Origin: Candidatus Poribacteria bacterium
Lineage (GTDB): Bacteria; Poribacteria; WGA-4E; WGA-3G
NCBI GenBank assembly: GCA_964291315.2
Contig: OZ219750.1
Coordinates: forward strand, 448,001-512,000
Direction of reading: 5' to 3'
DNA: 64,000 nucleotides
In this document: positions 10,728 to 62,562 of the stretch, piece after piece
Layout of the letters: each line of letters opens with the position of its first letter
Position numbering within the stretch: position 1 is the first letter of the stretch
Position numbers and translations under genes: made by a program
Notes under the pieces: model-generated
Database searches by the model: none
What the model saw: the letters and a program-made list of their open reading frames with translations, nothing else
Told to the model about the DNA's origin: nothing

Positions 10728-10795
10728 TGAAAGAAGTCTCCATTATTCAGAATTCAGACAGAGTTTGGACTGTTTGTATTGAGACAGAAATTGCT

Positions 10796-11081
10796 CAGAG
10801 CCATTCAATTGTCGATGTGTAGTTTCCGTATGTGTATGTTTGGATATGGTTACATCAGAGATAGCGTGACATTTCAGGCTATCTCTGATAGAATAGACCT
10901 CATTCTTATGAACAGACATATTTTGAGGTATATCATGACGAAAGCGAACGCTCGCCATCTGCTGAATATATTAGCAGATATTCCAGATTTTCGCAACCTG
11001 CGCGGCAGGCGGCATCTGCTCTCTGCTATCTACGCGCCCTCAACCTCATGAAAAAATATGAACGACAATTGAATGGCTCTG
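10796..11081 (+). mobile_element. ISAs1-family internal-deletion derivative (MITE), 286 bp
   Basis: Perfect 19-bp terminal IRs cagagccattcaattgtcg / cgacaattgaatggctctg; retains transposase N-terminus MTKANARHLLNILADIPDFRNLRGRRHLLSAI (from 10935). Confidence 0.8.
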
Positions 11082-11100
11082 GATTTTCTATTAAAAAAAC

Positions 11101-11129
11101 TTGACATGAGGTGCGTTTTAAGATATACT
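11101..11129 (+). promoter_or_regulatory. Sigma70-type promoter upstream of the poly-C leader ORF
   Basis: TTGACA-17bp-TATACT. Confidence 0.75.
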
Positions 11130-11188
11130 TAAAATAATATATTGTAGAAGCTGCAGCATGAAATAGTCCGAAAGCGAATTTGTAACCT

Positions 11189-11685
11189 ATGCGACATATG
11201 AAAGCTTTAGACACAGGTTCCAGAATTAGCACGTCAGATCGGCTTAGCCCCCTCTTGGGTATTCAGTGCCTATTATATCGTCTAATTTCTGCCTTTAGTT
11301 GGATTTTTAGCGATTACCCCCCCCCTTACCTTTACACATAGTAAGTATTTTATCCCCTTTATCACAAGACATACCCGCGCGCCGCGGCACTACCCACTTT
11401 GCGCCTGCTCGCCAGCTGACCCAACAGCACAAGATCGCACACCGGCCACAGAGCATCCGGCAGCCGAAGATAGGCAGGAGCAAAGCCGATCCTATAGCAA
11501 AAGAGACAGCCGCTCTATTCTTTTCATATGTTTTATGCTGGCGTTCCGTTTTCACGCACTTTAGGGACACTTGGTGCCGCCATTCAAAATACGCAAGGAC
11601 AAGGAGGACTGAAATTTGGAGGCTGCCCCTGTTACCTCTTCCTATGGAGAGCTGGAGGGTTCTTCACATAAAGTTTGTTTCGTAA
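11189..11685 (+). other. Poly-C (C9, 11317-11325) leader ORF, currently out of frame: 50 aa with C9 (stop 11339-11341), 165 aa with C10 (stop 11683-11685)
   Basis: Manual translation; ungapped similarity to ORF 41783..42220; the shifted frame is stop-free from 11326 to 11682. Confidence 0.6.
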
Positions 11686-11760
11686 GCAGAGAGAATGGAT
11701 CTGTCATCCGTGATTCCATTCTTATTTGATTTATGTTTAATATATGAATAACAGAGGAGG

Positions 11761-14646
11761 ATGAGACTGATGTTAATGTTATGGAATAAAATGAGACTAT
11801 TTGTGGTGTTGGGCCTGGTGTGTTTCTTCTCAACATCCCGGGCTTCCGCTCTTCAGCAGGATAACGCATGGCAATCGAAGAAAGGTAGTTTTTATGTTTT
11901 CACAGCCGGAAGTGAATCCTTAATACCTACACTCGCTGACAACGGCATCGTGGACACGGTAAAAGGGGGACCGATAACTTGGGGTAGAGCTTCTGGCCTT
12001 ACTTATTTTCCGGACACCTGGTCGGAACTGCAGGAGCTATTCCGCGGAGGCGGCGGGCTTGCCGTTGCAGTGAGGATTCCGGCTACAAGCGACACGGGCC
12101 AGTTCACGTTTGCTAAGCATAAAAGTTGGGCTGCTACAAAGGCAGAGGCGGACAAGTTCGAGGTTACCGAGGAGACAAAAGCCTTGGCGAAGACGTTCAA
12201 GCAGGCAATTGTTTTCAGCGAGGTCATGTGGGGTCGGGATTTCGCTGCGAGAACTGATGGTCCCGGCGAGTTTGGGGCCCAATGGGTTGAATTTTACGTC
12301 AACAAACTTTTGAAAAGCGACGATGAGGTGGTATTCAGATCATATAGTAATGCTACCGAGATGCCTGCTCCGGGTGAGATAGTATCAGTAACTACGGGCG
12401 GCGGTTCTAATTTTTATCGCTATCATTATGTCTTTTTGGATCGTATATCAACGATCGATCGTTGGGGTAGGAATTGGTTCCCGGATGCGCCGGGTAAAGA
12501 TGGTGATAGCGACGGCAACACAAATGCCGGCCTGCCTCCGACGCCTGTGGTCTCTATGTATCGGGATATCAAACTTGACAGCACAGGGAAGGCGTATGCG
12601 GTCAAAGATGGTAACCTGGATGGACTCGGTGATGGCAGCGAACCCAGCGCCTGGAAGGAGTCCGTCGGCCGCGTGAACATGGCGGGGCACTTCATCGGTT
12701 CCCCGGGCAGCGTTCACGTGCTTCATCCTGGCGGTCCCCATGTAACAAGGTTTGATAAGGCGCCTAAGGATGAAGATATCACGGCTACCGGCATCATCAT
12801 CAATGAGGTGTACAACGACCCGTCAAGTGCGAACTTGGATTGGATAGAGTTGTTCTATAATACCGATGACGCGGCAGCTGCATCTATAAGCATAGAGAAC
12901 TATAAGTTGAGCTTGGTGATGGGCAAGATGAAGTCTGATGGTAGCGGGTATAACGAGTCTGGGGATGCCAACTTCACGGAGACGAGCCTTGCGGTGCTGC
13001 CGAAATACAAGATGCGGCCTGGGGAGTATCTGGTGGTCTATAACCGGGAGCCTGGGAAGAGCGTTAAGCTCGCTGGGGGTGTGAACGTTAGCAACCTGTT
13101 GGACAGAACGGACATCAACATGGGTGCGACGCACAAGTATGCGGTTGCGAAGGATCTGAGTCTGCCTGCTACGGGCAAGTTCCTGATCCTGTTGCGCACG
13201 CGGAATAGTGCGGATGACGTTGGCAAGCCGACGAACATCAAAGACTACGCTGGCAACGGTTTCTTCAAGCGCATGGAAGATGGAAAGTTCAACACGTACC
13301 TCTGGCCGTTCGTGGGTTGGACGAAGCCGGGAGATGTGGATGATAACGACTTCGGTGGTATGAACAGCTTCTCTTCTCGGAGCATGTCGTTCGGTCGCGG
13401 TGTCCACTTGAACGCGAAGGGGATGTATTGGGCGAAGTCTCGTGCGAATCGTGTCCACAAAGACGACTGGCAGTCGTTTGGTTTCATGGGTGCTGGCTAC
13501 GATCGCGGCAAAGATAAAACGATTGACAAGGCGAGTTCCCCTGGCACGCCGGGGTATCCGAACATGGTAGTGGGCATGATCGCTGATGACAAAGACACCG
13601 CATCGACTGAAGACGACTATGCGTTTGATGGAACAGTGACGATCAGCGAGATCATGTATGATGCGGGACCGCGCTGGGACTTGGTGCAGTGGATAGAGCT
13701 CTACAATAGTTCTATGACGGAGACGCTAAACCTTGAAGGGTGGGAGTTTGAGATCCGCAACGCCGACACAAACGTAGATGCGTATGTGGATGCGTCTTTC
13801 ACGTTTGCTGCGGGGACGTATCTGCCGCCGAATCAGACGTTGCTGCTGGTGTCGAAGAACGGTGTGAACGATGTGCCGGAGAACTACGTATACAATCTGC
13901 AGCAGAAGCATCGTAGCGATCTCGGGTTGACGGCGAACGGTCGCCGGTTGCTGAGTGCGGAGGGTTTCCGTCTGGAGCTGCGTGCGAAGATCAGCGAAGG
14001 CGGTCAGTCCCGGTTGCGGGTGATGGACACGGCTGGCAACGTTGAGATAGTGGAGGGTCTGCGCAAGCGTGCGTGGGAACTGCCGAAGCGTGGGGATGTG
14101 CGGATGTCTATTGTGCGCAAGTCTGGAGGCATCTTCAATAACATGACAGAGGGTTCTGGTCCGCATGCTGCGGATGACGGTCTGATGAAAACCTCTTGGC
14201 GGAAGGGTTCCTCGCTGACGTACTACGGACATCGTGACGATATCGGCACGCCGGGTCATCGTGCTGGGGGACCGCTGCCCGTGTCGCTCTCGAGTTTCCG
14301 GCCTGTTCGCGATGCCTCGACGGGCCACGTTGAGATTACGTGGGTAACGCAGTCAGAGCTGAACAATGCGGGGTTCAATATCCTACGCAGTGAGAGCAAG
14401 ACCGGTGAGTTTGCGGTTATCAACGCCGAGGGTCTGATTGCTGGCCACGGCACGACGTCTGAGAGGCATGTGTATCGCTACACAGATACGACTGCGAAGC
14501 CGAGTGTGGTGTATTATTACCAGATAGAAGATGTCTCTATGGATGGGGTGCGCACGACGTTACGGACGACGCATCTGCGTGGGGATGTCTCTGCGAATGG
14601 TAAGCTCACGACGCGTTGGGGAGAGCTGAAATCGTCTGATAAATAA
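11761..14646 (+). CDS. Large secreted lamin-tail-domain protein with PLPVSLSSF Ig-like domain and C-terminal KLTTRWGELK motif
   Basis: Signal peptide; three (I/F)(S/N)E(V/I).. / QW(V/I)E(L/F)Y LTD-like units; W.TQSELNNAGFNILRS domain; start may be 11770. Confidence 0.85.
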   Translation: MRLMLMLWNKMRLFVVLGLVCFFSTSRASALQQDNAWQSKKGSFYVFTAGSESLIPTLADNGIVDTVKGGPITWGRASGLTYFPDTWSELQELFRGGGGLAVAVRIPATSDTGQFTFAKHKSWAATKAEADKFEVTEETKALAKTFKQAIVFSEVMWGRDFAARTDGPGEFGAQWVEFYVNKLLKSDDEVVFRSYSNATEMPAPGEIVSVTTGGGSNFYRYHYVFLDRISTIDRWGRNWFPDAPGKDGDSDGNTNAGLPPTPVVSMYRDIKLDSTGKAYAVKDGNLDGLGDGSEPSAWKESVGRVNMAGHFIGSPGSVHVLHPGGPHVTRFDKAPKDEDITATGIIINEVYNDPSSANLDWIELFYNTDDAAAASISIENYKLSLVMGKMKSDGSGYNESGDANFTETSLAVLPKYKMRPGEYLVVYNREPGKSVKLAGGVNVSNLLDRTDINMGATHKYAVAKDLSLPATGKFLILLRTRNSADDVGKPTNIKDYAGNGFFKRMEDGKFNTYLWPFVGWTKPGDVDDNDFGGMNSFSSRSMSFGRGVHLNAKGMYWAKSRANRVHKDDWQSFGFMGAGYDRGKDKTIDKASSPGTPGYPNMVVGMIADDKDTASTEDDYAFDGTVTISEIMYDAGPRWDLVQWIELYNSSMTETLNLEGWEFEIRNADTNVDAYVDASFTFAAGTYLPPNQTLLLVSKNGVNDVPENYVYNLQQKHRSDLGLTANGRRLLSAEGFRLELRAKISEGGQSRLRVMDTAGNVEIVEGLRKRAWELPKRGDVRMSIVRKSGGIFNNMTEGSGPHAADDGLMKTSWRKGSSLTYYGHRDDIGTPGHRAGGPLPVSLSSFRPVRDASTGHVEITWVTQSELNNAGFNILRSESKTGEFAVINAEGLIAGHGTTSERHVYRYTDTTAKPSVVYYYQIEDVSMDGVRTTLRTTHLRGDVSANGKLTTRWGELKSSDK

Positions 14647-18887: not shown

Positions 18888-20874
18888 TCATAGCGGTTTG
18901 CTGTAAAACACCCTATTCAACGTCTTATCTGCCTCACTGACCTGAAATGTTTCGTCTTCTATTTCAGAGAGATGCACATACAACTGGTTCTTATCCAATA
19001 ACTCCGCTAACAGACGCTTCTGTTGCTCAACGTCCTTGATAGCGCTAAAGTGTGCTTCGGCCCCCTCCGGGGCATCAGGGGTGATGTACCAATTGAGAGC
19101 GGAGTCTTCTGCCATATCGCGCCAGATGTCTAGCAGCTCTGCAGAAGTGGTTGCGAACTGGATCCGCTCCATGAAAACTTGGTTGTAAGGCATTAGCTCA
19201 CAGGATATGAAATTCTCGCCGAGGAGTTTCTCTTTTTCAATGACTTTCCGGAGTCGTTCTTTGCAAACGGCTATGTGCTTTTCCAGCTGCTCTACCAGTA
19301 TAAACTGCCGATTGCCGCTATCGTGTTTGTTCAGTTCTAAGACCGCATGTCCTGTAGTGCCTGAACCCGCAAAGAAGTCAAGCACAATATCTCCTGGATC
19401 TGTTGTAATTTTTATGATGTCTAAAACTGTATATAGGGACTTCGGGTACGAAACGCTTTTTCTTCCAATAATTTTTTCCAAAAGTTTGGTGCCATGGCTT
19501 ACCGCATTGTATTTCTTGGCAATCCAATGGGTTGTAAATACTTCAACTTCCCTAACCTTATAGAAAATTCTGATTTCGTCCTTCTGGTTTTTCTGCGCAA
19601 CGATTTCGTCACGTCTTACTTTTTTTAAAAAACTTTTGGGCTTTAGAAACCAGATTCTTTCAACACCGTTGTTAATTGGTAAAATCTTGTGATAATTTTT
19701 TTCTTCGATTAATGAAATATCGTCTAAATTAGAGCTGACATAGATAGGATAGAAGTTGTCTGGTTTGTTTCTTCGCAGTTCCTCGCCTCTAATAAACGAT
19801 CTGAGTTTATATTTTCCATTTTCATCTTCAAGATTAAAATTCGCTTTTTTCCCCTCTGAAATTAGAACTTTCCGGAAATTTGCAAGCGATCTATCTCTGG
19901 CATACACAAGCATAAATTCATTACTTGTCCCGAAAAACTTTTCCTGGCTTCTGCCTTCTGGTTTGTGTACAACAGTTATAACGCCTAATTTATTTTCTCT
20001 CCCAAATATCTCATCTACCAACGCTCCTAAATAAAAAAGTTCATGATGATCAATAGCAATAGCAATGAATCCATCAGGGGTCAGCAATTCTCTTGCAACC
20101 TCTAACCTATTTTTCATAAACGTCAGCCACGTTGAGTGATTAAAAGCGTTGTTGTAGGTAAAGGTCTCCGATGAACCACCCGTATTATACGGCGGGTCTA
20201 TGTAAATGAGTTTGACCCGCCCGCGAAATTGCTCTTTAAGGGTGTGCAGGACAATCAGGTTGTTGCCTTTGATGACAAGGTTCTCACGGATAACACCGGC
20301 ATCATCTCGCTTCAGTTTGAGAGTTCCGTTTTCTATGTGCTTATCACAGATTACCCCCCCCGCTCTTATCAACCTCTCCTCCCATCGCCCTAACACCATG
20401 ACGCTCCCAACACGTCAGAACCTTCGCATCAAACATACGATCTATCTCATCCGGCGCCAGAACCTCATTGAAGAATATCTCTTCACGTCTCTCCTCTTCA
20501 TGTATCTGACCGCCTTCCAATATACAATCCTTATACGGCCAGACCAAAGCGACTTCCCCCCGCTCACGCAGATATTTGCCATCAATATTCAAACCTATTC
20601 TATTACGGAACTGGGTATAGGAATCGGCAAAGAAGTTCTTATCCGTGATATAATCAACGAAGGTGTTGTTATCGAAGATCCAACGTCCTGCTATCTCTTT
20701 GAAGAACTTCACCGCTATTTCTTCTTCTGTGGAGAGCAGGCTGATCAGCTCGGGGTCGAGTTTCCAAGCCCGTTCTCTGACGCTTGCACGCTGGAGTGCT
20801 CCGGTAGCATCAACAAAGTTAGAGTTGGTTTCAAGAAGTCTCATCAGTTTTTGGTCAAAACGTTTCTTTGACAT
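18888..20874 (-). CDS. mod: Type III R-M Mod adenine methyltransferase, split by a frameshift at a G8 tract (20354-20361); no res gene adjacent
   Basis: ORF 20344..20874 (Mod N-terminus, LVWPYKDCILEGG) plus ORF 18888..20399 (NLVIKGNNL, IYIDPPYNTG, DFFAGSGTTGHA); G7 or G10 would fuse them. Confidence 0.88.
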
Positions 20875-29149: not shown

Positions 29150-30727
29150 ATGCTAACGTTTTTCCTCACGTTCTTTGTACTCCTCATCAATGCTGGTACA
29201 CATCTTTTTCAGATGCAGGGATACTATCTTGCGGTCAGCCATTGTTATTACGGTGTTGCTATTCTTGCTGTTATATACGTTAGACCTCGCGAGCAAAACG
29301 TCCTATTTGGTGTTACGGCGATAGCCAATTGGGTTTACGTTTTCCGCTATCCGGGGCAAGCGGAGGGTATCATTGTTGCACTCCTTTATCCGTTTCTTAT
29401 GTTCGGTGTTATTCGTGTCATTCGCCAATTTCAGTATCAACGCCGCAGTCGTGTTGAAGAGATAGAGGAGATAAACAGTGTCAACGCGAATTTAGAAAAA
29501 CAGATAAGAGACATCTCTACGCTTTTTGAGGTGAGCCAAGCTGCCAACGCCGACATTGAGTTGGAGGGACTCTTTCAGCGTATCATTAAGATCCTCTCTA
29601 AGCGACTCGGTATATACCGCGGGGCGTTGCATCTTTATGAGGACGGCAAGGTTGTTACGGAGGTGGAAACCTTCTTAGGCCTCACCGCTGCTGAGATGAA
29701 ACGAGGCACCGACAATCAAATAGAAGATATTCAGAGACAGGTGCTTGCATCGGGTAAAGCGATCGGTGTGCCACAAACACGGAGGTCCCGCAGTTATGTT
29801 AAACTCTTTGAACCGGAACGCCTCGAGTCGAAGGATATAATTGCGTTCTGGTGCATCCCGGTTATTATAGAGGAGCAGGTTATCGGCACCTTAACTATTG
29901 ACAAAGCATCGGATGAATTTTCGGCGGAGGACGACAGGCGGCTCTTGACAATTATCGCCTCCACCATCGCGCAACGAGTTAAAATTCAGCAGACAATTGA
30001 CGCGCTCGTTGAGTCAGAACGGATGGCAACACTCGGCAGATTGGTTGGAACTATTGCACACGAGGTGCGAAATCCTTTAGGGAGTATCCGACTTGGTACC
30101 CAACTCCTGCAGCATACTGATCTGGCGGAATCGGATTCTCCCGTCGGATTCTGTTCTAACCAGAAACGGCTTTCTCAGAACGAGGTTAAGGAATATACGG
30201 CGATCATTATCAAAGAGGTGGACAGGCTGAACCGGTTCATTGAGCAACTTCTCGCTTTCAGCAAACCGGCAATGCAAGCTACAAAACAGATAGATGTTCA
30301 TCAACTCATTGATAATAGTCTTGCTGTCTGTCGTCCGGAATTAGATCATCGTACAATTACGGTAGCAACTCAATATGATAACGATTGTCCGCAGATCAAT
30401 ATCAACGAAGACGGAATAACGCAAGTACTTCTAAACTTGTTTTACAATGCTATTGAGGCGATCGATGCAGAGGGAACGCTGAGCGTACAGACAGAATATC
30501 TACCAGAGACACAAATTGTCCAAGTGCGGGTTCAAGATGACGGCCCCGGGATTCCGCCTGAGGATATTCCAATGCTCTTCGATCCGTTTTATACCACAAA
30601 ACAGAAGGGGACTGGGCTGGGACTCTATATTAGTCAAAAGATTCTTGCCCAACACCAGGGCAGCATTGAAGTTGATGCAGATCTTGCAGTCGGCACAGCG
30701 TTTGTTATATCTTTTCTTGTAGATTAA
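29150..30727 (+). CDS. Membrane sensor histidine kinase (TM + GAF + HisKA + HATPase), NtrB-like
   Basis: IAHEVRNPL, QVLLNL..NA, DDGPGI, FDPFYTTK..GTGLGL. Confidence 0.92.
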   Translation: MLTFFLTFFVLLINAGTHLFQMQGYYLAVSHCYYGVAILAVIYVRPREQNVLFGVTAIANWVYVFRYPGQAEGIIVALLYPFLMFGVIRVIRQFQYQRRSRVEEIEEINSVNANLEKQIRDISTLFEVSQAANADIELEGLFQRIIKILSKRLGIYRGALHLYEDGKVVTEVETFLGLTAAEMKRGTDNQIEDIQRQVLASGKAIGVPQTRRSRSYVKLFEPERLESKDIIAFWCIPVIIEEQVIGTLTIDKASDEFSAEDDRRLLTIIASTIAQRVKIQQTIDALVESERMATLGRLVGTIAHEVRNPLGSIRLGTQLLQHTDLAESDSPVGFCSNQKRLSQNEVKEYTAIIIKEVDRLNRFIEQLLAFSKPAMQATKQIDVHQLIDNSLAVCRPELDHRTITVATQYDNDCPQININEDGITQVLLNLFYNAIEAIDAEGTLSVQTEYLPETQIVQVRVQDDGPGIPPEDIPMLFDPFYTTKQKGTGLGLYISQKILAQHQGSIEVDADLAVGTAFVISFLVD

Positions 30728-30872
30728 CGTGAGTTCGAGGATCCGAGTGCTGTTGTCTTCTGTAGGGGGTCTTTCTATTCCTAAGTATAGTCTACAAAAG
30801 GCAACGAAAGTCGGGCTTTGGAAATCTCTCGTACAGAAGAGGGTTTTAATAGCGAAACTAATGGGGAAGAAT

Positions 30873-41719: not shown

Positions 41720-41782
41720 TCGTAGGAAATATAGGGCGAAAGTAAAACCGTTTTGATTTGTTAGGCGTATCATTTATAATCT

Positions 41783-42220
41783 ATGAAACCCATGAAAGAT
41801 TTGTCCACTCACACTTCAATCAAAATGTCAGAAGGGCTTGGCAAAGTGCACCGTGTTGGTTGCTCCTCCTCTGATCTAAGCCTTCCTGTTTTGTTGCTTT
41901 TTAGCAATTTTACCCCCCCCCACTACTTTACATTAGTTAGGTTTTTGGTTCATATATTTCTTCACCAAACTGCGTCAGTGTTTACTGCTGTCGCGGTTTT
42001 TTCGCGCCTGCTCGTGCCTTGCACGTTGCAGGCTATTTTTGTTGTCGCGTCGGGATTTTCCCGGTGCATGTTTCGCTGCTATCTTGCCTCTACAGGGCTT
42101 TGCACCTGCCGTGGCGGATGTACATGCGTATCTGTAACTTGTAACGTGGGTTTGCAAAAAGATTTAGGAGAGCTCTCTTGCGGCATAACATGTCAGTCTG
42201 TGCTTTTTCAGCACTTGTAG
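41783..42220 (+). other. Poly-C (C9, 41913-41921) leader ORF, in frame; 3' end runs into a MITE
   Basis: First ~55 codons align without gaps to the 11189 leader. Confidence 0.55.
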
Positions 42221-42322
42221 CAGAGTCTGCTAGACTGTGCATCCGTAGCCTGGTTTCTTATTAGGCTGTGCAAGGATCCTCTTTATTCAAAGATGAGCCA
42301 AATGGTTATCAAGCTTGCGTTA
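42142..42322. mobile_element. MITE with TAACGTG terminal IRs and internal REP-like gtagcagag.ctg units
   Basis: taacgtgggtttgcaaaaagatttagg ... ttatcaagcttgcgtta; internal parts match the reverse complement of 62416-62562. Confidence 0.65.
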
Positions 42323-42372: not shown

Positions 42373-43140
42373 ATGAAGAAAGTTGTATTAACCCTCGGCG
42401 TTGTCTGTTTCAGCCTCATCGCTGTTCAGATCAGCACCGCCGAGATTGATTTTGATTCTGCAGTCGGTATCTGGCTTTTTGACGAAGGCAAAGGCGGCGT
42501 TGCTGCGGACATGTCGGGTGAAGGGAATGATGGGGAGGTCGTTAAAGCTCCATGGGTAAAAGGCAAATTCGGGATGGCACTCGAATTTGACGGAAAAGCG
42601 GGCTGCGTTAAGACCGAACAAAAACTTCTTGAGGTTCTCGAGGAATTCACGATTCTTGCATGGATACAGAGCACGGACGCTCCGCCGGCACGGACTGGAC
42701 TCGTCGGACAGAACAATGCCCCTGAATTCGGCTTTATTACCACGAATGAACTTAGCCTTTGGACCCCTTCGGCGGGTTTGACGAATAATCCTTGGAAGTT
42801 CAAACATGGCGATGGTGAATGGCATCATGTCGGGTGTGTCGCTACGACAGACTATGTCCATACGTATATCGATGGTGAATATGCCGAGCAGGAAGGGAAG
42901 TGGGCAAACCATGGCGGTTCTCCGTTTAACGTCAATATTGGGGGCTGCGGTGTCTGGGATGATGCGGGGAACTTTTTCCCGGGTCTAATAGACGAAGTCA
43001 TGATTTTCCACTCAGCCTTGGAACAAGAAGATATTCAGGCGCTTATGGACAAAGGCTATCAAGGATATTTGGCTGTTGACCCTGAGGACAAACTGGGGAC
43101 AACTTGGGGGCATATTAAAGCGACACATTATCTCAGGTAA
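42373..43140 (+). CDS. Secreted LamG-like jellyroll protein with C-terminal KLGTTWGHIK motif
   Basis: GIWLFDEG.G, GKFG.ALEFDG, WHHV, YIDG, F.GLIDEV.IF..AL. Confidence 0.88.
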   Translation: MKKVVLTLGVVCFSLIAVQISTAEIDFDSAVGIWLFDEGKGGVAADMSGEGNDGEVVKAPWVKGKFGMALEFDGKAGCVKTEQKLLEVLEEFTILAWIQSTDAPPARTGLVGQNNAPEFGFITTNELSLWTPSAGLTNNPWKFKHGDGEWHHVGCVATTDYVHTYIDGEYAEQEGKWANHGGSPFNVNIGGCGVWDDAGNFFPGLIDEVMIFHSALEQEDIQALMDKGYQGYLAVDPEDKLGTTWGHIKATHYLR

Positions 43141-46485: not shown

Positions 46486-46715
46486 ATTTGATATTGGGTT
46501 TATAGATTTCAGGGTCTAAAGTTTCTACGTTTTTAATATCAAGAGAGGTTTGCATTCATATGTTCCTGCCGTATTCTATCAGAATTCTGTTCTTTTTGCT
46601 ATCTATTTTTGAAAGGCTGTCTATAGCAGTTCGGAATCGGAGTTCCTTCCTAAAGTGGCGGGTTGCCAAGTTTGGGTCCAACCCGCGTTCTCTCGTGCTA
46701 TTGTTAAAATAAATT

Positions 46716-46744
46716 TGACAAATAGTGGGAAATATATTATACTC
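46716..46744 (+). promoter_or_regulatory. Sigma70-type promoter
   Basis: TTGACA-17bp-TATACT. Confidence 0.7.
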
Positions 46745-46749
46745 TATTA

Positions 46750-46888
46750 TAATGTGAGTTTGAAAAAGATTTAGAGGTCCAAAAAGCATCGGTAACTCTG
46801 TTGAATGAAAAACATGAAAGGGTCAGACTTGCTTATACCCAAGGTTTCTGTTTGTTCTATGGGCTAAATATTTATCAAACTCATGTTA
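46750..46888. mobile_element. MITE (139 bp) with TAA(C/T)GTGAGTTTGA terminal IRs
   Basis: taatgtgagtttgaaaaa ... tttatcaaactcatgtta. Confidence 0.7.
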
Positions 46889-62089: not shown

Positions 62090-62224
62090 ACGTTTGACAG
62101 TTTATGCTACAAGCCCCTTGCGTTGCAAAGGAAGCTAACAGTTTATGCCGCGGGCACCGAAGAGGCACAGCCTAGCAGTCTCTGCTACAAGAGAGTGCCT
62201 CTAAATCTTTTCAAACTCACGTTA
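62090..62224. repeat. REP-like units (cagtttatgctac/cagtctctgctac) plus a MITE right end
   Basis: gtctctgctacaagagagtgcctctaaatcttttcaaactcacgtta, near-duplicated at 62514-62562. Confidence 0.65.
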
Positions 62225-62415
62225 ATTAGATAACCCCGCAACTTGGATTGCCGGGTTATTTCATAGAGTAACACGATTTTGATAATTATTTATTTCAGCT
62301 TTTAAAGGCTGTGGTGCGTCTGTGAGTTGTGTGTAGGTTGAACTCGGTGTTTTTGTGCCGTGATGAAAACAAAGAATTATTTGATAAACGCTCTGAGATG
62401 TGTTATATTTTATTA

Positions 62416-62562
62416 TAATGTGAGCTGGATGATTGTTTGGTTCATTTTTTGTTGCGGATGCCCAGATTGACAGTCTCTGCTACAAGAGATGTTTGCGGAT
62501 GTAGAGTCTAACTGTCTCTGCTACAAAAGAGTGCCTCTAAATCTTTTTTCAAACTCACGTTA
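62416..62562. mobile_element. MITE (147 bp), same family as 46750 and 42142
   Basis: taatgtgagctgga ... ttcaaactcacgtta. Confidence 0.65.

Follow-up and report, generated by a model that had tools for sequence, protein, structure and literature searches.

A 64,000-nucleotide (nt) window of a Candidatus Poribacteria genome (GenBank assembly GCA_964291315.2, contig OZ219750.1, positions 448,001 to 512,000 of the forward strand) carries at positions 11101-11760 a leader in which an upstream open reading frame (ORF) ends in a run of nine cytosines (C9), followed by the gene for a Lamin Tail Domain (LTD) protein of 961 amino acids (aa). The leader belongs to a portable cassette that recurs at least 29 times in this genome and is essentially confined to Candidatus Poribacteria. 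We propose, with a probability of roughly one half, that the length of this tract sets the reading frame and so gates the downstream gene, which would be switched by slippage. We infer that the change in tract length is heritable, and likewise which of the states is ON; since the assembled C9 gives the short form of the upstream ORF, the locus is probably in its low or OFF state. A switch of this type had been put forward in a preliminary description of the window, which we find to be largely right in kind, its key dynamic step being unproven. Its assignment of the DNA to Poribacteria was also correct.

The features of the locus are collected in Table 1. The tract lies about 190 nt downstream of the promoter at 11101-11129, in neither a promoter spacer nor an upstream activator site, and a role as promoter spacer was ruled out by this position. 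It ends 435 nt before the start of the LTD gene and is thus outside the coding sequence of the putatively regulated protein. The leader ORF contains a simple-sequence repeat whose copy number fixes the length of the peptide, which, counted from the second ATG, is 121 aa at C8, 47 aa at C9 and 162 aa at C10. From the first ATG, the C10 ORF has 165 aa, and its stop codon ends 360 nt past the tract (11685 in present coordinates), by arithmetic 75 nt ahead of 11761 and in the same frame as the LTD gene. The sigma-70 promoter (11 of 12 consensus positions), the ORF at 11189-11341 with its C9 at 11317-11325 and its stop at 11341, and the course of the C10 frame all agree with what had been described earlier, and frame computation confirmed that, depending on tract length, translation would either halt within about 20 nt or read on for a long distance. 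In the 150 nt that start 20 nt past the tract, the C content is 0.37 and the G content 0.21, and Rho is encoded in the genome.

The 661-nt leader has many paralogs in its own genome. There are 65 runs of at least eight C or G, which fall into a few families by the similarity of their flanks, and the largest family (22 sites, tracts C8-C10) includes both leaders of the window, with their tracts at 11317 and 41913. Its aligned members share the order of a promoter, about 50 nt of untranslated leader, paired in-frame ATGs, about 40 codons, the C tract and an AGTAAGT-type motif. Seven further sites have the same architecture without detectable sequence similarity, and the genome holds in all at least 29 leaders with a tract of C8 or longer. 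An nhmmer profile returned 30 family members, 23 with at least C8, one with C7, one with C6 and five without a C run of five or more. The genes behind the leaders are for a large part of envelope or secreted type (LTD, Laminin_G_3, CarboxypepD_reg, TonB_C, the FGE-sulfatase-domain family and several unknowns), their signal peptides being judged by eye. Seven leaders precede genes that are not of the envelope type, namely DNA methylases (DUF1156 with a methyltransferase domain; N6_N4_Mtase), a Swt1-like HEPN protein and one other, which we take to be DUF4007-like. Hence, the earlier view of the leader as a reusable unit holds, and more copies exist across Poribacteria, but its restriction to secreted proteins does not, given these seven copies.

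Judged by its sequence, the upstream ORF is real and is maintained for translation, as had been assumed. With the frame set from the aligned ATG, and with copies that were not chosen for openness, no stop codon was found between ATG and tract in 22 of 22 copies, compared to 61 and 57 stops in the other two frames. ATG and tract are 105 to 125 nt apart, and this spacing takes all three residues modulo 3. Among six LTD paralogs, the substitutions in the ORF are spread over the three codon positions as 12, 12 and 11, and it is therefore the act of translation that seems to be conserved, not the leader peptide. The long read-on product was likewise ruled out as a real protein, its substitutions being without codon periodicity.

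The sequence after the tract is arranged such that the outcome of this translation depends on tract length. When the frames are anchored at the ATG, one or two of the three possible tract-length classes run into a stop within 30 nt at every one of the 29 leaders, and never all three; the trapping stop usually lies inside the conserved TAAGT-type motif. The longest escape frame covers 82% of the spacer (P = 0.012 against composition-preserving shuffles), with 82% as the median of the 25 leaders whose spacers measure at least 100 nt. For paralogs that are not independent of each other, 10 of these 25 frames, which belong to at least five subfamilies, are longer than 95% of the shuffles. Of the seven methylase or defence leaders, five have an escape frame whose stop overlaps the start codon of the gene by four bases (ATGA or GTGA), and two of these five are paralogs of unequal spacer length (290 and 473 nt); at the remaining two leaders the frame ends 25 nt inside the gene. 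A looser test of start-stop proximity in other genomes was too permissive and was set aside. In three copies, a C9 tract would make the upstream ORF continuous with the gene in one frame. Copies with a decayed tract are locked into the long frame; two of them read to a TAA just 5′ of the Shine-Dalgarno sequence of the gene, and one crosses a strong hairpin-plus-T7 terminator. Terminator-like hairpins that only the long frame crosses were found in several subfamilies, including the second copy in the window.

Other genomes were scanned for a composite motif (TTA, at least C8, 4-20 nt, TAAGT), with the reversed pattern as control. Within the taxonomic family, 42 of the 111 other genomes carry the motif; across the three remaining families of the order, it is absent from all 47. 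The reversed control gave one match among all 176 genomes. A stricter motif matched 34 times among 185,579 species (one genome each), 28 of the matches being in metagenome-assembled genomes (MAGs) of Candidatus or uncultured Poribacteria. The composite motif is thus essentially confined to Candidatus Poribacteria, where the module is present in short-read and long-read assemblies alike. Sites in other genomes were divided into 42 of the leader type, one of which (L134, from a Prevotella MAG) matches by chance, and 17 that lie inside restriction-modification (RM)-type genes on the opposite strand. Leader-type tracts measure C8-C12, and matches to the motif extend up to C15. The shift needed to reach the escape frame is mixed, being n+1, n-1 or both. 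The leader sequence itself is hardly met elsewhere: blastn against 40 relatives returned one weak match, a strict pattern with an ATGAAAG start had no match in 60 congeners, and the sequence of the leader is therefore species-specific, whereas its architecture is not. A metagenome scan gave no match to a locus-specific pattern and 12 short contigs with the generic motif.

The same tract and flank recur as a G run inside large RM-type genes, one of which lies in the window. This type III mod gene (region 18888-20874, minus strand) is split at a G8 run (20354-20361) into a 176-aa N-terminal part and a 503-aa part, with matches to TypeIII_RM_meth (20347-20874) and N6_N4_Mtase (18891-20399), and a G7 or G10 run would fuse the two. 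The G8 copies of such genes need a change of -1 or +2 and the G9 copies one of +1 or -2, so that all would be in frame at G10 or G7. Paralogs that diverge by 3-23% nevertheless have both halves of the gene open. Elsewhere in Poribacteria, in-frame G10 alleles occur beside out-of-frame G8 and G9 paralogs (in one genome, L125 compared to L120 and L128). The occurrence of C runs in leaders together with G runs in RM-type genes, where G10 restores the frame, suggests a typical repertoire of contingency loci, in which the tract is a feature at the level of DNA. The tract also varies in length, from C7 to C15 among paralogs and species, and close paralogs whose 600-nt flanks are otherwise free of insertions or deletions (indels) differ by a single C (in G129, L193 and L191 compared to L194).

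Several observations weigh against a heritable, slippage-driven switch, or against its action on the LTD gene. In this assembly, none of the 22 RM-type genes that carry a G tract is in frame, and the three closest paralog pairs in the genome (94-97% flank identity) have equal tracts. No indel was seen at 11317-11325 in the contigs of three runs of one study, none of which was shown to bridge the tract, so that they are evidence neither for nor against; at 20354, a C8 was matched by one contig, possibly from the same data as the assembly, and C insertions at 20353 in X2 and X3 possibly come from paralogs. Both MutS and MutL are present, and rates of switching may therefore be modest. At the assembled length, 34 of the 42 leader-type sites are in the short state, compared to 35 of 84 for the two alternative lengths (by tract length, the tally is 6 of 11 at C10 or longer and 28 of 31 at C8-C9), a bias which counts against the switch because a fixed short ORF with slippage at the RNA level predicts the same. 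As for the route from leader to gene, the LTD subfamily is the only one with an excess of C over G past the tract, which rules out a general Rho loading site at this position; no plus-strand intrinsic terminator was predicted at the 11101-11760 locus, the escape frame of the LTD subfamily halts 75 nt short of the gene, and neither the sequence nor the alignment of this subfamily has a clear Shine-Dalgarno sequence before the upstream ORF.

In the cassette, a predicted sigma-70 promoter is followed by an upstream ORF, apparently translated and about 40-50 codons long, whose 3′ end carries a C8-C13 tract, and then by a stop trap (TAA or TAG, in the TAAGT-type motif), a spacer and the gene. Tract length would determine the frame in which ribosomes exit the tract: in one or two frames they would halt within about 20 nt, which gives the short form, and in the remaining frame or frames they would read on toward the gene. 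Read-on would raise expression by a route that depends on the copy, either by shielding the translated transcript where the spacer is C-rich, so that Rho is blocked, as may be the case at the 11101-11760 locus, or by the melting of terminator hairpins by ribosomes, or by a coupling that brings ribosomes to the start of the gene. Slippage that adds or removes a single C would then switch the gene between low and high expression. The earlier suggestion that the leader acts through polarity, Rho termination or coupling is in part supported by the presence of Rho, by the C-rich stretch at the locus and by the start-stop overlaps in five of the seven methylase or defence copies. A stronger version, which we regard as improbable, takes the conserved core (TTA-Cn-few bases-TAAGT), used in both orientations, as the mark of a dedicated contingency cassette with a lineage-specific factor or process that would drive or control the change in tract length, that is, a programmed local mutator or slippage device.

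The same frame gate could also work without any heritable change. RNA polymerase slippage, or ribosomal frameshifting on CCC-C, a frameshift-prone sequence on which EF-P and m1G37 have known roles, would send a fixed or tuned fraction of ribosomes into the escape frame, and the tract would set a level of expression, not ON and OFF clones. This is possible, if rather unlikely. It would account for the short default state that is so strongly favoured among the leader-type sites, and for the 22 RM-type genes (G8 or G9), which keep both halves open yet are one step from being in frame. It fits less well with the mixed direction of the escape shift, which agrees with two-way slippage and not with one ribosomal shift, and with the length of the tracts, which are kept at 8-13 although four C's suffice for ribosomal shifting. 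Transcriptional slippage, for its part, is best documented for A or T runs, and RM-type G10 alleles that are in frame beside G8 paralogs are what DNA-level switching expects.

We then considered whether the peptide encoded by the tract could be the functional element. In the leaders the tract codes for Tyr-Pro-Pro-Pro, and such proline codons could pause the ribosome in a manner that depends on EF-P or prolyl-tRNA, uncoupling or masking the RNA as in leaders of the mgtP/mgtL type, without a change of frame. The ORF does appear to be translated, two to four prolines always stand just before the stop, and in other genomes the entry frame in which TA and the first C form a Tyr codon is favoured (zero stops at 34 of 59 sites, compared to 7 and 16 in the other frames). 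Against this, 29 of 29 leader tracts are pure C, with no synonymous proline codon (CCA, CCG or CCT) within them, and the proline run is not conserved as amino acids, since the phase of the tract takes all three values; its length ranges from 8 to 13, and in the RM-type genes the opposite coding orientation yields Gly-Gly-Gly-Val. The tract is thus conserved whichever strand codes and without synonymous interruption, which favours a slippage-prone repeat over a role at the level of peptide or RNA. Stalling would also leave the long escape frames and the ATGA overlaps unexplained, and no conserved alternative RNA structure was found. Hence, we give a polyproline stalling leader little credence.

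A role as a binding site, in which a protein or a G-rich small RNA recognises the C tract in RNA or DNA, tract length tuning regulation as in the RepG/tlpB case and the open frame being secondary, appears very unlikely. It would agree with the conservation of the leader, in which 25-40% of columns are variable compared to 65% at the start of the downstream gene, and with the conserved flank, TTA before the tract and the TAAGT-type motif after it. A short helix in the upstream ORF could be read in the same way, as 78% of cells are paired compared to 69% in shuffles (0 of 500 as high), for a helix that was picked by eye from the same sequences. Binding would leave unexplained the 0, 61 and 57 stops in the three frames, the lengths of the escape frames and the overlaps, and the RNA itself gave no sign of a conserved fold: Rfam 15 had no match at the gathering score in the whole window and none at E ≤ 1 in 11050-11800, RNAalifold on 19 leaders returned no consensus pairs and no mutually exclusive stem-loops, and the folding energy of the whole leader equals that of shuffles (z = +0.33); a partner RNA was not searched for. 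A structured RNA or riboswitch was ruled out on these grounds.

The reliability of the tract lengths themselves has to be weighed as well. In this genome the 65 runs have lengths of 8 (45 runs), 9 (18) and 10 (2), while 59 sites in other genomes of the genus range from 8 to 13, so either this species keeps shorter tracts or the assembly compresses long homopolymers. Because no in-frame G10 occurs among the 22 RM-type genes and the lengths are skewed to 8, the called lengths, including the C9, may be off by one or two. That the whole pattern is an artefact or without function, either because C9 is a consensus error or because the leader is a repeat in decay that owes its open frame to common ancestry among paralogs that are not independent, is extremely unlikely despite the suspect homopolymers (all 22 RM-type genes out of frame, 45 of 65 tracts at 8), as the module recurs in 42 of 111 other family genomes, assembled from short or long reads, with close to zero control matches, drift would have closed an ORF whose other two frames hold about 2.7 stops per copy, and an error in length would change the state called at the locus, not the existence of the cassette.

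Table 1. Features of the two leader loci in the 64,000-nt window (positions are those of the window)
Feature	Position	Strand	Basis
Upstream segment common to other leader copies	11036-11100	+	bases 257-305 of query 10780-11100 match upstream of leaders C4:3083318 and C4:101582
Predicted sigma-70-type promoter, TTGACA-17 nt-TATACT	11101-11129	+	11/12 consensus positions; same place in aligned paralogs
Upstream ORF (leader peptide), 50 codons at C9; in-frame ATGs at 11189 and 11198	11189-11341	+	ORF list
C9 tract, read TAC CCC CCC CCT (Tyr-Pro-Pro-Pro)	11317-11325	+	sequence
Stop trap, in-frame TAG TAA (11339-11344) within conserved AGTAAGT motif	11339-11346	+	sequence, paralog alignment
Escape frames: C10 reads to 11685, C8 to about 11564	11326-11685	+	frame computation
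C-rich, G-poor stretch, candidate Rho loading region	11342-11500	+	composition
GGAGG before the LTD gene	11756-11760	+	sequence
Putative regulated gene, 961 aa, two Lamin Tail Domains, signal-peptide-like N-terminus (by eye)	11761-14646	+	ORF and Pfam (two LTD domains, E 1.5e-20)
Promoter-like site before second leader, TTGATT-16 nt-TATAAT	41753-41780	+	10/12 positions
Second leader copy, upstream ORF with C9 at 41913-41921, long state (145 aa)	41783-42220	+	frame computation
Gene behind second leader, 255-aa Laminin_G_3 (ConA-like) protein	42373-43140	+	E 7.5e-19

The second leader of the window (Table 1) belongs to the same family, as the preliminary description had noted, and its peptide aligns to that of the first without internal gaps; the alignment stands, and only the identity string given for it drops one dot, 'M.MK' having to read 'M..MK'. 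The long ORF of this copy crosses two weak terminator-like hairpins (41984-41997 and 42018-42032). Its sole promoter-like site ends 2 nt before the first ATG, and the ORF may therefore be nearly leaderless. A repeated element with a palindromic core is found in inverted orientation at 42142-42245 and 62157-62562 of the window, and the same core was seen by eye upstream of other leader copies elsewhere in the genome. A promoter-like repeat, with a TTGACA-type box, a TATA-type box and a shared downstream motif, is present in three copies (46713-46763, 62379-62429 and 30688-30738) and resembles the leader promoters in style. Just upstream of the first cassette, the stretch 10780-11050 is repeated at four other sites of the genome with 71-89% identity, two of which are close to RM-type tract genes. 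It holds a truncated ORF with a match to DDE_Tnp_1_assoc below the cut-off (E 0.11), which leaves an ISAs1-type transposase unproven; the stretch may be the remnant of an insertion sequence.

We compared the cassette with known systems that share one or more of its parts. Classical homopolymer contingency loci are those of Campylobacter, Helicobacter and Neisseria, and of the fim promoters of Bordetella. Like them, the cassette has G or C tracts of at least eight at surface and restriction-modification genes, and the intragenic G tracts of the RM-type genes are exactly of this kind; the tract at the first locus differs in its placement, being part of an upstream ORF of its own that leaves 435 nt between tract and gene, and is in neither the coding sequence nor the spacer between -35 and -10. 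In the tnaC-rut system, a leader ORF controls Rho by the position of the ribosome. The same principle is described for mgtP/mgtL, where ribosome position in a leader ORF controls Rho or terminators (PMC3641672, PMC5021804). The likeness lies in a leader ORF that decides the exposure of the downstream RNA, with consecutive prolines near its end, and, in our case, in Rho and a C-rich stretch. The difference is that those leaders have a fixed sequence at which a metabolite or the capacity for translation is sensed, whereas the Poribacteria leaders have a homopolymer of variable length without synonymous codons, and that other genes contain this tract in the opposite coding orientation. In Helicobacter pylori, the length of a G repeat in the tlpB leader, the target of the small RNA RepG, tunes regulation (PMC8295292). 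A length-variable homopolymer in an mRNA leader that tunes the downstream gene is common to both, but in H. pylori the repeat is an untranslated target of a small RNA, whereas the tract described here is inside a maintained ORF, and its consequences for the frame are conserved.

The closest precedent is the pil1 pilus operon of Streptococcus gallolyticus, in which GCAGA repeats in a leader ORF switch between a short and a long peptide (Danne et al. 2014, PMC3894217). According to that paper, the short peptide ends before a premature terminator, which gives low expression and is the majority state, and translation of the longer peptide prevents termination and gives high expression. The principle of a phase-variable leader peptide coupled to attenuation had therefore been published, and the suggestion that the leader might represent an undescribed system does not hold in this respect. 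Both systems have a promoter, a short leader ORF with a simple-sequence repeat that sets the length of the peptide, and a surface structure as the target, and in sibling Poribacteria copies there are terminator hairpins crossed only by the long frame. Compared to pil1, the Poribacteria repeat is a C homopolymer and not a series of 22 GCAGA units, and the cassette occurs dozens of times per genome across a candidate phylum, where the pil1 type is known from one or two operons. It also stands before DNA methylase and defence genes, and some of its copies end in a start-stop overlap, which would mean coupling and not antitermination. The first locus has no predicted intrinsic terminator and a C-rich stretch in its place, and the cassette is known from sequence alone. 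In the literature searched, we found no report of phase variation in Poribacteria, the two being named together only in what its title and abstract show to be a methods review, the term 'upstream open reading frame' was not met in work on homopolymer phase variation, and work on restriction-modification and homopolymers made no mention of Poribacteria.

The Poribacteria that live as sponge symbionts are uncultured. If the proposed switch is true, one genome would hold about 30 independently switchable genes, for envelope proteins (Lamin-tail, ConA-like, TonB-C and FGE-sulfatase-domain), DNA methylases and HEPN-type defence, together with a further 22 RM-type genes that would be switchable by intragenic tracts. 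If the tract length were in addition under the control of a programmed slippage device, dozens of surface proteins and defence systems could be diversified jointly within the population of symbionts in one sponge. In summary, the switchable genes would form a contingency repertoire comparable to that of Campylobacter or Neisseria, but in a mutualist, and the cassette would generalise the leader-peptide phase variation of S. gallolyticus from a single locus to a modular device that could stand in front of any gene.

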